From the NCBI GenBank assembly GCA_041662725.1, contig JBAZRX010000004.1, forward strand, positions 2,668 to 66,667: DNA of 64,000 bases, read 5' to 3'. This DNA comes from Minisyncoccota bacterium. Lineage in GTDB: Bacteria; Patescibacteriota; Minisyncoccia; Phycocordibacterales; PALSA-1337. The position numbers were made by a program, and so were the translations under genes. Under the pieces are notes generated by a model that saw only the letters and a program-made list of their open reading frames with translations, searched no databases and was not told the DNA's origin. This document shows, one piece after another, positions 14,759 through 45,269 of the stretch (the stretch's first letter is position 1; each line of letters begins with the position of its first letter).

Positions 14759-16054
14759 ATGGTATGGTATGTTATACACATGCATAAAAAAGTTGTTTAT
14801 TTTGATAATGCTTCAACTACACCACTAAAAGAGGAGGTCTTTCAAGCAATGCTCCCCTATTTCAAAGACGAATTTGGTAACCCGTCTAATCTCTATGGTA
14901 TGGGAAGAAAAGCTAAACAAGCTATCAATGAAGCAACTTTTAAGATTAGTTCTGCCTTAAATTGTTTACCAGAAGAATTTATCTACACAGGATCAGCAAC
15001 AGAGGCGGATAATTTAGCTATTGCAGGAACAGCTAGAGCTAATAAGAAATATGGTAATAGAATTATTATTTCTGAAGTGGAACATAAAGGTATTCTATCT
15101 GTTTGTGAACAATTAAAAAAAGAAGGCTTTGAGATTGTTCAATTACCTGTAAATAAAGATGGCTTAGTTAGTCTTGAAGCACTTAAGAAAGCCCTTAATG
15201 AAAAAACTATTCTAGTATCAATTACTATGGCGGATAGCGAGACTGGGACAATACAGCCGATAAGAGAGATTGTGAGGATTATTAAGTCTCGAGGCGAGAC
15301 CTCGAGGCCTCGCCTCGAGGCCGATTTAGCAAAATCGCCACTGGGTAGGCCTCGATTTCACACCGATGCTTCGCAAGCCGCTACTTATTTGGATATTAAT
15401 GTGGAAGAACTAGGTGTTGATCTTTTAACTCTCTCAGCTCACAAAATGGGTGGACCAAAAGGTATTGGTGGCCTATATATTAAGCGTGGCACAAATATTG
15501 AGCCAATTATTTATGGTGGTGGCCAGCAAGGTCACTTAAGGTCCGGTACTGAAAATGTACCAGCAATTGCAGGTTTTGGCGTGGCTTTTGGAGAGGCCTC
15601 GCCTCGAGGCCGATTTAGCAAAATCGCCACTGGGAAGGCCTCTAAATTACGTGATCGATTAGAGCGTGGTATTTTTAAGCTTATACCGAAGGTGCGCTTA
15701 AATGGTCACAAAACTAAGCGCTTACCGAATTTCTTAAATGTTTCTATTTTAGATATTGAAGGTGAAGCATTACTTCTTCACTTAGATGAGCTTGGTATTA
15801 TAGTTAATACAGGATCAGCTTGTAATGCAGAAAACCTTAAACCATCGTATGTTCTTACGGCTATGGGTAATCCTTATGAATTTGTTCATGGTAGTATTAG
15901 GTTTACTTTAGGAGAAAATAATACAATTAAAGATGTGGATTACGTGCTTAAACATTTACCAAATATTGTAAAAAAGTTAAGGGCTATTTCGCCGTTAAAT
16001 CTCGAGGCCTCGCCTCGAGGCGAGGCCTCGAAAAACCATGTCAAAAAATGCTAA
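14759..16054 (+). CDS. nifS: cysteine desulfurase NifS/IscS family, carrying three in-frame REP insertions
   Basis: VYFDNASTTP..., SAHKMGGPKG (PLP Lys), SGTENVPAIAGFG. Inserted peptides [42 protein letters not shown] and C-terminal [10 protein letters not shown] come from GC-rich palindromes. Confidence 0.85.
   Translation: MVWYVIHMHKKVVYFDNASTTPLKEEVFQAMLPYFKDEFGNPSNLYGMGRKAKQAINEATFKISSALNCLPEEFIYTGSATEADNLAIAGTARANKKYGNRIIISEVEHKGILSVCEQLKKEGFEIVQLPVNKDGLVSLEALKKALNEKTILVSITMADSETGTIQPIREIVRIIKSRGETSRPRLEADLAKSPLGRPRFHTDASQAATYLDINVEELGVDLLTLSAHKMGGPKGIGGLYIKRGTNIEPIIYGGGQQGHLRSGTENVPAIAGFGVAFGEASPRGRFSKIATGKASKLRDRLERGIFKLIPKVRLNGHKTKRLPNFLNVSILDIEGEALLLHLDELGIIVNTGSACNAENLKPSYVLTAMGNPYEFVHGSIRFTLGENNTIKDVDYVLKHLPNIVKKLRAISPLNLEASPRGEASKNHVKKC
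15287..15355. repeat. REP-like element (core palindrome + CCCAGTGGCGATTTTGCTAAATCGGCC module), in-frame in nifS
   Basis: TCTCGAGGCGAGACCTCGAGGCCTCGCCTCGAGGCCGATTTAGCAAAATCGCCACTGGGTAGGCCTCG. Confidence 0.85.
15592..15642. repeat. REP-like element (half core + B module), in-frame in nifS
   Basis: GAGAGGCCTCGCCTCGAGGCCGATTTAGCAAAATCGCCACTGGGAAGGCCTC. Confidence 0.85.
16001..16030. repeat. REP core palindrome at nifS 3' end
   Basis: CTCGAGGCCTCGCCTCGAGGCGAGGCCTCG. Confidence 0.85.
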
Positions 16055-16739
16055 ATCAAAGGAGGCCTCGAGGCCTCGCCTCGATGTAATCAATAAAAAT
16101 ACAGGTAATTCCTGGGCGTATTCAAAGATTGTACGTGAGCATTTTTTCAAACCACGTAATCTTCTTTTGGAAGATCCTAAAGATATTTCAAAGAAATTAA
16201 AAAAATATAATGCTGAAGGCATGGTTGGATCACCTGCTTGTGGTGATGTTATGCGTATTTGGTTAAAAATAGATGCTAAAAAAGATAAGATTGAAGAATT
16301 TAAATGGCGTACATTCGGTTGTGCATCGGCTATTGCCGCCACCTCAATGCTTTCTGTTATGGTTACAGAAAAAGGAGGTATGAAGATAGAAAAAGCTTTA
16401 AAAATTCGCCCTCAAGATATTATGAAGCGTTTGGGCGGACTTCCTGATAGAAAGATTCATTGTTCTGTACTTGGTGATAAAGCTCTTCGAGCGGCAATAA
16501 ATAATTGGTTCAAAAAAACCGAGCAATTTAGTCGGGTAATTGTTGATGGTGCTAAAGTACTTGATCCTAATACCAAAACAACAGAAGCTGATATTGAAGA
16601 AGCTGTCTTGGAAGGTGCGACAACGTTAGAAGCTGTACAGAAAATTACTAAAGTTGGTATTGGTTATCCGGAATGTTTACCTGCGGTTGAGGAATTAATT
16701 AGATTTTATAGAGAGAAGTATTTTAAGAAAAGCTTCTAA
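16038..16739 (+). CDS. nifU: Fe-S cluster assembly scaffold NifU/IscU-like with C-terminal BFD-like domain
   Basis: HFFKPRN...GSPACGDVMRIWLKID...FKWRTFGCASAIAATSML...HCSVLGDKALRAAI is the IscU/NifU N-domain. Confidence 0.8.
   Translation: MSKNAKSKEASRPRLDVINKNTGNSWAYSKIVREHFFKPRNLLLEDPKDISKKLKKYNAEGMVGSPACGDVMRIWLKIDAKKDKIEEFKWRTFGCASAIAATSMLSVMVTEKGGMKIEKALKIRPQDIMKRLGGLPDRKIHCSVLGDKALRAAINNWFKKTEQFSRVIVDGAKVLDPNTKTTEADIEEAVLEGATTLEAVQKITKVGIGYPECLPAVEELIRFYREKYFKKSF
16062..16084. repeat. REP partial core at nifU 5' end
   Basis: GAGGCCTCGAGGCCTCGCCTCGA encoding KEASRPRLD. Confidence 0.8.
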
Positions 16740-16743
16740 AATA

Positions 16744-16861
16744 CGAGGCGACTTAGTAAGTGAGCCTGATGGCGAGCCATATGTTTCTTCGAGGCCTACC
16801 CAGTGGCGATTTTGCTAAATCGGCCCCGAGACGAGGCCTCGAGGTCAGGTCTCGCCTCGGG
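16744..16861. repeat. composite REP cluster (B module + core + hairpin-like arm) downstream of nifU
   Basis: ...GAGGCCTACCCAGTGGCGATTTTGCTAAATCGGCCCCGAGACGAGGCCTCGAGGTCAGGTCTCGCCTCGG. Confidence 0.8.
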
Positions 16862-44195: not shown

Positions 44196-44252
44196 TATTA
44201 AAGATTGTTAGAGCTTAGCGAATATTACTATTCACAACACTTGGTTGTAATT

Positions 44253-44278
44253 CAAACAATTGCACAATATGACAATTT
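44253..44278. repeat. short copy of the ACAATTG-type array (AACAATTGCACAATATGACAATTT)
   Basis: Near-identical to 47161-47186. Lies between the convergent gatB and obg. Confidence 0.6.
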
Positions 44279-45269
44279 AAGAAATTAACCTCTTAGCAAT
44301 CTCTTCGCCTATTTTCTTTATAGATTCATCATCAAGCACCGTCACATCCAAAATATCTTGATTATACTTACTTAAAGCTTCGCGTGCAGACTTAATAGTT
44401 TCTGCATCAACTAGATCTGTTTTTGTAAGAATTATCACTTCTTTCTTTTCAGATAAACCATTACCATATTTTTCAAGCTCTTTTCTTATAGAAAGATAAG
44501 ACTCTACTTCGAGGCGAGGCCTCGAGGCCTCGCCTCGAGGCGAGGCCTCGATTAAATGCAGTAATATCTTCGTTCTTTTAACATGTTTCAAAAATTTATG
44601 ACCCAAACCTTTTCCTTCAGCCGCACCTTCTATAAGTCCAGGAAGATCCGCTAGGATAAAACCCCCTTTCAAAGCTCCAAGGTTTGGATCTAGTGTAGTA
44701 AATTGGTAACTACCAACTTTTGCATGAGCAGAAGTAAGAGCATTTAAAAGACTTGATTTACCTGCGTTTGGTAAACCGATAAGCCCAGCATCAGCGATAA
44801 GATCAAGCTCAACTTTGAAATCAGCTTCTTCTCCATTAACACCAGGTGTAGATTGTTCGGGACTAACATTAGTAGAAGCTTTGAAATATTCATTACCTAA
44901 GCCACCACGACCACCGTGAAGTATCTTAGAAACTTGTCCCTCTTCAACAAGATCAACTATACGTCCAGTTTTTGTATTTTCAATGACAGAACCGATCGGC
45001 AGGTCAATATAACAATCATCTCCTGTTTTACCTTGTTTACTTAAGTTTTGCCCGCTCTGACCATTTTCAGCTACGAATAGCTTGGTAGTTTTATGACGCG
45101 CCAAAATATTAATGTCACGAACAGCACGTATATAAACATCGCCACCTTTACCACCATTACCACCGGCCGCCCCAGCAAACTCTTTAAATTTTTCATGACG
45201 CCAACGAGCGACACCGTTGCCGCCATTTCCTGCTTTAGCATGGAATTGTATTTCATCAATTAATGCCAT
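44277..45269 (-). CDS. obg: GTPase Obg/CgtA, one in-frame REP insert
   Basis: Obg fold N-terminus (FHAKAGNGGNG...GGNGGKGG), G1 GLPNAGKSSLL, DLPGLIEGA. Insert [17 protein letters not shown]. Confidence 0.85.
   Translation of the reverse strand: MALIDEIQFHAKAGNGGNGVARWRHEKFKEFAGAAGGNGGKGGDVYIRAVRDINILARHKTTKLFVAENGQSGQNLSKQGKTGDDCYIDLPIGSVIENTKTGRIVDLVEEGQVSKILHGGRGGLGNEYFKASTNVSPEQSTPGVNGEEADFKVELDLIADAGLIGLPNAGKSSLLNALTSAHAKVGSYQFTTLDPNLGALKGGFILADLPGLIEGAAEGKGLGHKFLKHVKRTKILLHLIEASPRGEASRPRLEVESYLSIRKELEKYGNGLSEKKEVIILTKTDLVDAETIKSAREALSKYNQDILDVTVLDDESIKKIGEEIAKRLIS
44510..44551. repeat. REP core (1.5 copies), in-frame in obg; last copy in the window
   Basis: TCGAGGCGAGGCCTCGAGGCCTCGCCTCGAGGCGAGGCCTCGA. 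Confidence 0.9.

Follow-up and report, generated by a model that had tools for sequence, protein, structure and literature searches.

Palindromic repeats in frame within housekeeping genes around a RAYT-like transposase gene of a Paceibacterota bacterium

The stretch of DNA considered here (the window) is a 64-kb part (64,000 nucleotides (nt), G+C 37%) of contig JBAZRX010000004.1, from a metagenome-assembled genome (MAG); the analysis covers this window. The host is an ultra-small bacterium of the Paceibacterota (phylum Minisyncoccota, Candidate Phyla Radiation (CPR)/Patescibacteria). The TGT and the transposase encoded in the window are identical to the NCBI proteins MFA6295055.1 and MFA6295048.1, respectively, both annotated as Candidatus Paceibacterota. 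The subject of this report is a family of short GC-rich palindromic repeats that crowd around the gene for this transposase, which resembles the transposases associated with repetitive extragenic palindromic (REP) sequences, the REP-associated tyrosine transposases (RAYTs), and that lie in frame inside a number of neighbouring enzyme genes.

The transposase gene is situated between divergent OFOR and hydrogenase genes, at the centre of the zone of dense repeats, and repeats of the family adjoin it on both sides:

24571-25158, minus strand: gene for the RAYT-like Y1/HUH transposase, 195 amino acids (aa), in the divergent OFOR/hydrogenase intergenic region
24528-24582, unstranded: RAYT 3' flank, one 13-nt unit and a GTAG-tagged 35-nt hairpin module, which gives the last codons of RAYT
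25157-25208, unstranded: RAYT 5' flank, a GTGG-tagged 35-nt module
25294-25357, unstranded: two perfect 26-nt (two-unit) palindromes, intergenic, 140 nt upstream of RAYT and upstream of the NiFe small-subunit gene

The motifs of the protein are intact and are conserved in its family: the HUH motif reads H73-I-H75, and the catalytic tyrosine lies in Y133-IHLNP. The protein passes the Pfam Y1_Tnp profile (36.4 bits; cut-off 23), and its family numbers 13,546 representatives at E<1e-3.

The basic unit of the repeat family is a 13-nt mini-hairpin, GAGG-N5-CCTC (effectively GAGGC-NNN-GCCTC). In the window, 65 units are distributed among 34 sites. Most units (41 of the 65) read GAGGCCTCGCCTC or its complement GAGGCGAGGCCTC; others have variant spacers, such as CCTGA/TCAGG, CGAGA and CTTCT/AGAAG. 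Units join head to tail, so that the 8-nt palindromic core CCTCGAGG, which occurs 47 times in the window, comes back every 13 nt. The two-unit 26-mer GAGGCCTCGCCTCGAGGCGAGGCCTC has 12 matches at up to 3 mismatches, versus none in 100 shuffles. A second component of the family is a 35-nt module, in which a GAGGC...GCCTC stem around (A)CCCAGT(A/G)G is followed by an AT-rich hairpin, GATTT-NNNN-AAATC. The 11 copies of this module are all inside 15323-32441, and the tag that precedes the GATTT/AAATC stem is GTAG in three of them and GTGG or GTGA in the other eight (the 13-nt units are tag-less, though TAGAGGC closes many arrays). A third arrangement resembles a REPIN (REP doublet forming a hairpin): the inverted doublet GAGGTCAGGCCTC-12 nt-GAGGCCTGACCTC is found at 9199-9240, 32978-33020 and 42484-42525.

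The repeats stand out from the DNA around them in base composition (G+C 77% vs 37%), and the arrays, as single-stranded DNA, fold at -16 to -33 kcal/mol (z -4.5 to -8.2). One 45-nt three-unit array is present identically in the Pyr_redox_2 flavoprotein and TGT genes. Scans of the window with Rfam and for tRNA gave no matches, which means that the repeats belong to no known RNA family, and the exact 26-mer was found neither in GTDB species representatives nor in viral contigs. No consistent target-site motif is readable in the flanks of the arrays, because the boundaries of the units are ambiguous. (Tandem arrays of 13-nt period with the core CCTCGAGG, for example of repeated CCTCGAGGACAAA, also occur at contig ends of gut MAGs, L003, L006, L008 and L011, from Tabaqchalia and Clostridia. 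These arrays are direct tandem repeats with no palindromic pairing, and are probably an artefact or a phenomenon of another kind.)

In an nhmmer scan of the window under permissive settings (E<=100, --max), copies are confined to 9181-9238, 11439, 15288-33018, 42486-42574 and 44509-44549. The segment 15288-33020 (17.7 kb, 28% of the window) holds 29 of the 34 sites (binomial p=4e-12), and repeat DNA makes up ~6.5% of this dense zone; within ~9 kb on each side of the RAYT gene, copy density is ~18-fold over background. Gene starts were reset using orthologue alignments before coding sites were counted. The earlier note on this DNA had stated that most copies are coding, and this stands in the sense that 63% of repeat nucleotides and 19 of the 34 sites (19 of the 29 in the dense zone) are coding. 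Relative to the space available, however, coding copies are under-represented: with coding sequence at 90% of the zone, the non-coding 10% holds ~10 of the 29 sites (p=3e-4). Such a depletion is what purifying selection against insertions in genes would be expected to leave. Large repetitive open reading frames (ORFs) border the dense zone, one at 11451-14414 (minus strand; 987 aa, with 129-nt/43-aa tandem repeats) and the other at 33018-41873 (minus strand; 2951 aa, with several internal repeat families). Both are wholly without the palindromic repeat.

Ten of the genes that carry coding repeats are confirmed by Pfam: NifS, NifU, the Pyr_redox_2 flavoprotein, ADP-forming acetyl-CoA synthetase (ACD), OFOR beta, OFOR alpha, the NiFe-hydrogenase large subunit, PfkB, TGT and Obg. 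The assignment of an eleventh, ORF136 (27888-28298), as a hydrogenase maturation protease is weak (HycI E=0.13, and only with the insert removed). The earlier claim of in-frame repeats in 11 housekeeping genes is borne out as 15 internal sites in nine genes (NifS 2, Pyr_redox_2 2, ACD 2, OFOR alpha 2, NiFe large subunit 1, ORF136 1, PfkB 1, TGT 3, Obg 1) together with the termini of NifS, NifU and OFOR beta. With the last codons of RAYT, the coding termini account for four more sites; the remaining sites are intergenic or beside a pseudogene. There are up to three sites per gene, and the repeat-coded share reaches ~11% of residues in TGT and in NifS. In the following list, comparisons are with relative A (ENA k141_947274 / JGI Ga0376277_0005282, loci L034 and L037) where it is named:

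15288-15354, plus strand: NifS internal site 1, aa 171-192; two units and a 35-nt module; hypervariable loop; net +2 aa
15593-15642, plus strand: NifS internal site 2, aa 272-288, in place of a 15-aa segment; net +3 aa
16001-16030, plus strand: NifS C-terminus (site 3); the conserved tail of the relatives, ...AFIGNQTPHFLRK, is lost
16062-16083, plus strand: NifU N-terminal tail, KEASRPRLD, aa 9-16
16786-16911, plus strand: repeat cluster (16786-16868) and out-of-frame Nfu remnant of 17 codons (16861-16911; tblastn DCKLLDLTYNKVVRLLI)
17686-17719, plus strand: Pyr_redox_2 site 1, directly before the second GxGxxG motif; +8 aa vs relative A
17943-17987, plus strand: Pyr_redox_2 site 2, three-unit (39-nt) array; +8 aa vs relative A
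20319-20436, minus strand: ACD inter-domain linker (site 2), aa 449-488; two module-plus-unit copies; net +4 aa vs the unrelated linker of relative A
21641-21685, minus strand: ACD site 1, aa 33-47, RGEASRSRLEVSPR; three-unit array; net +5 aa
21790-21818, minus strand: OFOR beta C-terminal extension, SRGEASRPSLE; +9 aa past the stop of relative A
23678-23740, minus strand: OFOR alpha site 2, aa 251-271; net +2 aa
23859-23913, minus strand: OFOR alpha site 1, aa 193-211, RGFSSRPRLEEKPRGLAS; four-unit array with spacers CTTCT/AGAAG; net -1 aa; also in an independent Logan contig
26835-26856, plus strand: NiFe-hydrogenase large subunit, aa 333-339, RPRGEAS; loop 7 aa shorter than in relative A
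28123-28165, minus strand: ORF136 (putative hydrogenase maturation protease), aa 45-59; three-unit array; +10 aa
29905-29959, plus strand: PfkB kinase internal site, four-unit array; +11 aa
30638-30678, minus strand: TGT site 3, aa 319-332; three-unit array; hypervariable loop; +10 aa
30983-31009, minus strand: TGT site 2, aa 208-217; hypervariable loop past helix 190-210; net -3 aa
31222-31297, minus strand: TGT site 1, aa 113-138; three-unit array and 35-nt module; hypervariable loop; net -10 aa
44509-44550, minus strand: Obg GTPase internal site, aa 240-254; three-unit array; +4 aa vs Bacillus subtilis Obg (1lnz)

All 15 internal sites preserve the reading frame and are free of stops, and conserved sequence aligns to orthologues on both sides of each. 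(The chance of 15 frames out of 15 being kept with random lengths is (1/3)^15 = 7e-8.) Array length differs between coding and other sites: three-unit arrays (39 nt, 13 codons) constitute 7 of 17 internal arrays versus 0 of 17 elsewhere (Fisher p=0.007), and the intergenic arrays of the dense zone are perfect two-unit palindromes without exception. Because three 13-nt units make exactly 13 codons, gain or loss of one unit can restore the frame. The 13-nt units are stop-free in all six frames. Only one part of the family, the GTAG tag of the module, bears a stop, and this tag is altered wherever it is in frame: where the TAG of the module sequence GGGTAG would be read, NifS site 2 has GGGAAG and ACD has GGGCTC. 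In two genes, FBA and the 2951-aa gene, the stop codon comes from a repeat end of the form TAGAGGC.

The repeat-coded stretches are 7-40 aa long and rich in G/A/S/P/R/E/L, but the net change in length per internal site (relative to relative A, and for Obg relative to B. subtilis Obg) is only -10 to +11 aa. It follows that the repeats mostly replace unrelated ancestral loop sequence. The word inserts, which the earlier note had used for them, is thus apt as to frame and needs correction as to the rest, since most of these segments stand in place of existing variable ones. At NifS site 2, the segment that was replaced is fixed in length in 27 relatives. The gene for Nfu (the NifU C-terminal domain), which is 77 aa long and intact in relative A (L037 12003-12236), is destroyed here, its 5' two-thirds replaced by the repeat cluster at 16786-16868.

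Relative A is collinear with the window over 5.4-32.8 kb, with protein identities of 67-92%. It has only a 65-nt gap at the position of RAYT, no RAYT, and no repeat copies across the whole syntenic region. A search of relative A for decayed remnants (21-mers, up to 6 mismatches) gave matches at or below shuffle expectation. The idea that the insertions are older than the split from relative A was accordingly dropped, a 12/15 match in a TGT loop also being within chance after multiple testing. (The G+C content of relative A is 51-52% vs 37% in the window despite the 67-92% protein identity, a very large compositional shift.)

A second relative, relative B (Ga0163150/Ga0163153 contigs, loci L012-L033; G+C ~40%; identity 52-80%; partly syntenic in L015 and L021), has the identical 26-mer. 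Every copy there is a single two-unit palindrome and intergenic (0 of 32 in ORFs), and at locus L029 the 26-mer is found on both sides of a RAYT that is 54% identical to that of the window. In relative B, a longer perfect palindrome is centred on each 26-mer; its outer 4-8 nt arms vary from copy to copy and stay self-complementary (aaatccg...cggattt, cagatc...gatctg). The appearance is that of an element that either enters the loops of existing hairpins or duplicates its flank in inverted orientation. A third genome, MAG nzgw356 (56% G+C; locus L010), has a RAYT of 39% identity that is flanked by the variant CCTCGAGGCTTAGCCTCGAGGCTAAGCCTCGAGG (CCTCGAGG-CTTAG-CCTCGAGG-CTAAG-CCTCGAGG). The link to a RAYT proposed in the earlier note is therefore well founded: in three genomes a Y1/HUH transposase gene has the repeat at its flanks, and both are missing from relative A. 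From these three genomes, and from the exclusively intergenic copies of relative B, it also follows that the association of repeat and transposase is conserved and that coding invasion is specific to the lineage of the window.

Lineage specificity, which was to be checked by alignment to orthologues, is confirmed by the absence of repeats from relative A, and also at greater distance. The objection that distant orthologues might share the same peptides fails, because these are present in 0 of 119 TGT and 0 of 119 NifS homologues (238 in total). A search with the concatenated repeat peptide of a database of 5.8 billion proteins gave no matches at E<=1, probably on account of composition filtering.

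The location of the repeat-coded segments in loops has been assessed with structural models for TGT and NifS and by pairwise alignment for the other seven proteins. In TGT, the sites map to three loops, each of them variable in length and in sequence in every Paceibacterota TGT. In the AlphaFold model of TGT (mean confidence score (pLDDT) 83), they correspond to the low-confidence segments 101-135 and 321-325 (pLDDT below 50) and to the loop after helix 190-210. In the AlphaFold2 model of NifS (mean pLDDT 83), site 1 falls below 50 at residues 175-184, site 2 (mean 61) straddles a helix-break-helix junction, and the tail, site 3, is disordered. In both models, repeat segments have pLDDT below 50-70 and lie outside helices and strands or at termini; the earlier note had proposed a test for surface-loop location.

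The site-1 loop is coded by the strongest hairpin of the gene in 4 of 6 TGT genes examined. Other Paceibacterota share this feature (L039 2915-4300, GCA_964905985.1; L038 10001-11404; L034 10001-11284), and the L039 TGT gene has a second strong palindrome at site 2 (-28 kcal/mol folded alone). In the short loci L038 and L039, no multi-copy family matching these palindromic TGT loops was found; generality rests on hairpin strength.

These observations are probably best understood as the work of a REP-RAYT system of a Paceibacterota lineage that has bloomed locally, and of which the surviving coding copies are translated as flexible peptides. Its unit would ordinarily take the form of a 26-nt two-unit palindrome in intergenic DNA. 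The HUH/Y1 transposase would copy hairpins of single-stranded DNA with a preference for the vicinity of its own gene. Copies in genes would survive only in a tolerant loop, linker or terminus, only if their total length kept the frame, and only if no stop was made, conditions that the element suits unusually well; the survivors would be translated as flexible peptides rich in G/A/S/P/R/E/L. Later deletion, probably including recombination between neighbouring repeats, would remove adjacent residues of the ancestral loop, the outcome being a repeat that stands in for the old loop with little net change in length. In places that did not tolerate such change, or where no selection opposed it, sequence would have been lost, as in the Nfu gene and the NifS tail.

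Several points weigh against this account. Density across the dense zone is approximately flat, with sharp borders and no decay with distance from RAYT, and in the 64 kb that were seen the local bloom could be one among several dense regions unrelated to RAYT. There is no direct sign of mobility (neither an empty/filled polymorphism nor a target-site signature was identified). As to the transposase, it scores 40.7 bits against NCBIfam REP_Tyr_transpos (NF047646), under the equivalog cut-off of 80. The best PDB match of a profile of 63 sequences of its family, E. coli TnpA-REP (4er8), is marginal (E=0.011), with an alignment that covers the HUH and YI.xNP motifs, and a PDB search with the single sequence yielded nothing relevant. 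That the inserts are translated is also something that we infer. Finally, the small net changes in length and the few residues that repeat-coded segments share with relative A (GF..LE..P..LAS in OFOR alpha) fit simple insertion poorly, and they hint at an overwriting akin to gene conversion.

The alternative that takes up this last point is that the abundant repeat copies, used as donors during recombination or during template-switch repair, overwrite host sequence that partly resembles them (CTG-GAG Leu-Glu codons, for example). Loops would then be replaced like for like instead of receiving insertions, the role of RAYT being indirect or none. It has on its side the range of net changes (-10 to +11 aa, though segments are of 7-40 aa), the substitution for a fixed-length segment at NifS site 2, and repeat edges that fall at Leu-Glu codons shared with relative A; the spacers of OFOR alpha, moreover, match host-like sequence there. 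We nevertheless consider it unlikely. Net additions of 8-11 aa are clear in PfkB, in ORF136, at TGT site 3 and at both Pyr_redox_2 sites, and unrelated genes contain identical 45-nt arrays. The few shared residues could be due to chance after alignment optimisation, and remnants in relative A are not above chance. (The spacers CTTCT/AGAAG are found only in OFOR alpha, at 23859-23913 and 23678-23740 as compared with L034 16102-17892, and they resemble relative A there (GGC TTC; TCG AGA AGC CTG). Together with the shared residues, these variant spacers could signify hybrid or converted units, or chance.)

A function selected in the host would dispense with selfish spread altogether: the palindromes would be kept in a cluster of energy-metabolism genes as DNA or RNA structure, for pausing of transcription or translation, mRNA stabilisation or the structure of a chromosome domain or terminus. 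The great stability of the arrays as single-stranded DNA is compatible with such a role, as are the 48-nt windows of the TGT gene that reach -26 to -41 kcal/mol (median -6.6), the sharp borders and flat density of the zone, and the position of repeat ends at the 3' ends of genes, where they give stop codons. The change in sign of GC skew between ~18 and 42 kb is a further point in its favour. But relative A has the same gene cluster without repeats, and the copies of relative B are sparse and intergenic. In the window, copies occur in arbitrary frames and positions, and repeats have destroyed Nfu and truncated NifS, so that a function of this kind appears improbable. (GC skew is positive to ~18 kb and steadily negative beyond ~42 kb, whatever the strand of the genes; GatB, on the plus strand, has -0.10. 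Because the sign changes between these points, a replication skew switch may lie in or beside the dense zone.)

It is very improbable that the inserts escape translation by excision from mRNA or by ribosomal bypassing, after the manner of the mitochondrial byp elements or T4 gene 60. Strong hairpins do form in the mRNA, and GC-rich palindromes in an AT-rich genome resemble the GC clusters and byps of mitochondria. But the keeping of frames, the absence of stops and the mutation of in-frame TAG at internal sites would be needless if the segments were skipped, and neither take-off/landing codon pairs nor splice-like boundaries are present. That the repeats are ancient low-complexity loops (their sites are length-variable in all relatives) or an assembly artefact (short-read assemblies do break at them, and Logan contig L001 terminates within a copy) can hardly be entertained, since the same DNA is intergenic, is beside RAYT and is in other genomes, since no homologue carries the peptides, since an artefact would not keep 15 reading frames, and since, as against the doubt raised in the earlier note, an independent Logan assembly, of SRR18595301, matches window positions 23872-25195 at 100% over 1324 nt, three repeat cores included.

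A bolder form of the REP-RAYT reading is that RAYT acts mainly in cis, that a coding-compatible repeat continually overwrites the loops of neighbouring essential enzymes, and that the hypervariable loops of Paceibacterota are made and turned over by lineage-specific palindromes. This is put forward tentatively, as a possibility on the doubtful side; if true, much of the indel variation of proteins in CPR bacteria would have palindromic mobile DNA as a main source.

Repeats of this general character have precedents. The elements of type RPE-1, among the Rickettsia palindromic elements (RPEs), are ~100-150 bp long and have no dedicated transposase. RPEs at large, reportedly, are palindromic repeats that lie in frame in genes for functional proteins, are tolerated at protein surfaces and are lineage-specific (so Ogata et al. 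in 2000 and 2002 are said to have found). The RPE-like behaviour noticed earlier is real in that the copies of the window are in frame, lineage-specific and, by the TGT and NifS models, located in loops. On the other hand, the RPEs (RPE-1 to RPE-8) belong to Rickettsia, whereas the elements described here differ in sequence, measure 13-80 nt, are accompanied by a RAYT, are hosted by Paceibacterota and mostly replace sequence. The mobile GC clusters, or byps, of yeast mitochondria are reportedly GC-rich palindromes that invade an AT-rich genome, coding sequence included (var1 work of the Butow laboratory; Lang et al. 2014). The ribosome passes over byps, and these are free to break the frame, unlike the present repeats, which keep it at every site, have a RAYT and belong to another domain of life.

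Intragenic REPs with GTAG or CGTC tags are known from Opitutus terrae, Thauera and R. conorii (Di Nocera, De Gregorio, Rocco 2013; PMC3733652). In these genomes, some REPs, a minority, are contained entirely in the ORFs of known proteins, where dimers or groups coding for 20-30 aa (up to 43-82 aa) are frequent. REP ends give TAG stops, and the insertions have been proposed to be neutral, since they are in flexible linkers and loops. The remark in the earlier note that its author had not seen such a case described is too strong as a claim of novelty, as that paper reports both intragenic GTAG REPs in RAYT-bearing genomes and the CGTC REPs of R. conorii. The repeats of the window share with these REPs short GC-rich stem-loops, a RAYT, and, in three of 11 35-nt modules, a GTAG before an AT-rich stem-loop. 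The genic REPs of PMC3733652 are a small minority, scattered over the whole of large genomes; in the window, coding sites number 19 of 29 in 18 kb, tag-less 13-nt units form head-to-tail arrays, the host is a CPR bacterium, and copies cluster at the RAYT.

The REPIN-RAYT systems of Pseudomonas and enterobacteria (Bertels & Rainey 2011, PMC3116915; Nunvar et al. 2010, PMC2817692) are extragenic and dispersed. Like them, the window has a single RAYT between its own REPs and has inverted doublets in which the spacer is short. The repeat sequence withstands long divergence, the 26-mer being unchanged between RAYTs of 54% identity, and the repeats are gone where RAYT is missing, in relative A. Many-copy GC-rich palindromes and a Y1/HUH gene directly flanked by the repeat are REP-RAYT features found here; the extragenic location is found in relative B and not here. 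Neither a local bloom nor routine coding invasion has been reported for the REPIN-RAYT systems, and both occur in the window.

The qualitative phenomenon is thus already known, because intragenic REPs (PMC3733652) and RPEs have been described before. In the literature searched there is no report of REP-RAYT or RPE-like coding invasion in CPR. What is new is the CPR host, the density of repeats, the 13-nt modularity, the clustering at RAYT and the prevalence of replacement over addition. REP-RAYT and RPE-like coding invasion is in this way extended to the Candidate Phyla Radiation. REP mobility is not known to have been observed directly. The pile-up of repeats around RAYT, with a repeat-free syntenic relative for dating, offers a concrete test of RAYT-driven spread in cis. 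The coding sites also amount to a natural experiment in insertion tolerance, with 15 in-frame sites in nine well-studied enzymes and loops that take 7-40 foreign residues; the cost of insertion is seen in one destroyed gene (Nfu) and one truncated tail (NifS). The findings suggest a possible origin, in palindromic repeats, of the numerous lineage-specific loop insertions seen in CPR proteins. In practice, such repeats interrupt short-read assemblies and make marker proteins look more divergent than they are.

The rest of the repeat sites in the window are intergenic:

9181-9240, unstranded: outlying copy after RNase J, one unit and a REPIN-like doublet
11439-11451, unstranded: outlying single unit
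27772-27848, unstranded: pair of 35-nt modules in opposite orientation, with convergent genes on either side
28307-28335, unstranded: two-unit palindrome, the TAGAGGC end of which gives the FBA stop codon
29205-29232, unstranded: 26-mer copy between the divergent true starts of FBA (29189) and PfkB (29248)
32425-32468, unstranded: GTAG-tagged module and partial unit, with LOG and RRM genes on either side
32943-33020, unstranded: 26-mer and REPIN-like doublet, the end of which gives the stop of the 2951-aa gene
42484-42574, unstranded: outlying doublet with extended arms and a degenerate pair, ahead of where GatB probably starts (~42603)

For two of these copies, 29205-29232 and 42541-42574, the earlier note needs correction; with the gene starts as given, the former lies between FBA and PfkB and the latter ahead of GatB.

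Two further features of the window deserve mention. A 246-aa ORF without Pfam or NCBIfam match (18682-19422, minus strand) lies between the convergent flavoprotein and ACD genes and is repeat-free; because only 8 nt part these two genes in relative A, ~1.1 kb has been inserted at their junction. At 47225-47384, between a gene that ends at 47182 and one that starts at 47372, is an intergenic run of ~20 tandem copies of the 8-nt sequence ATTGTnnA.

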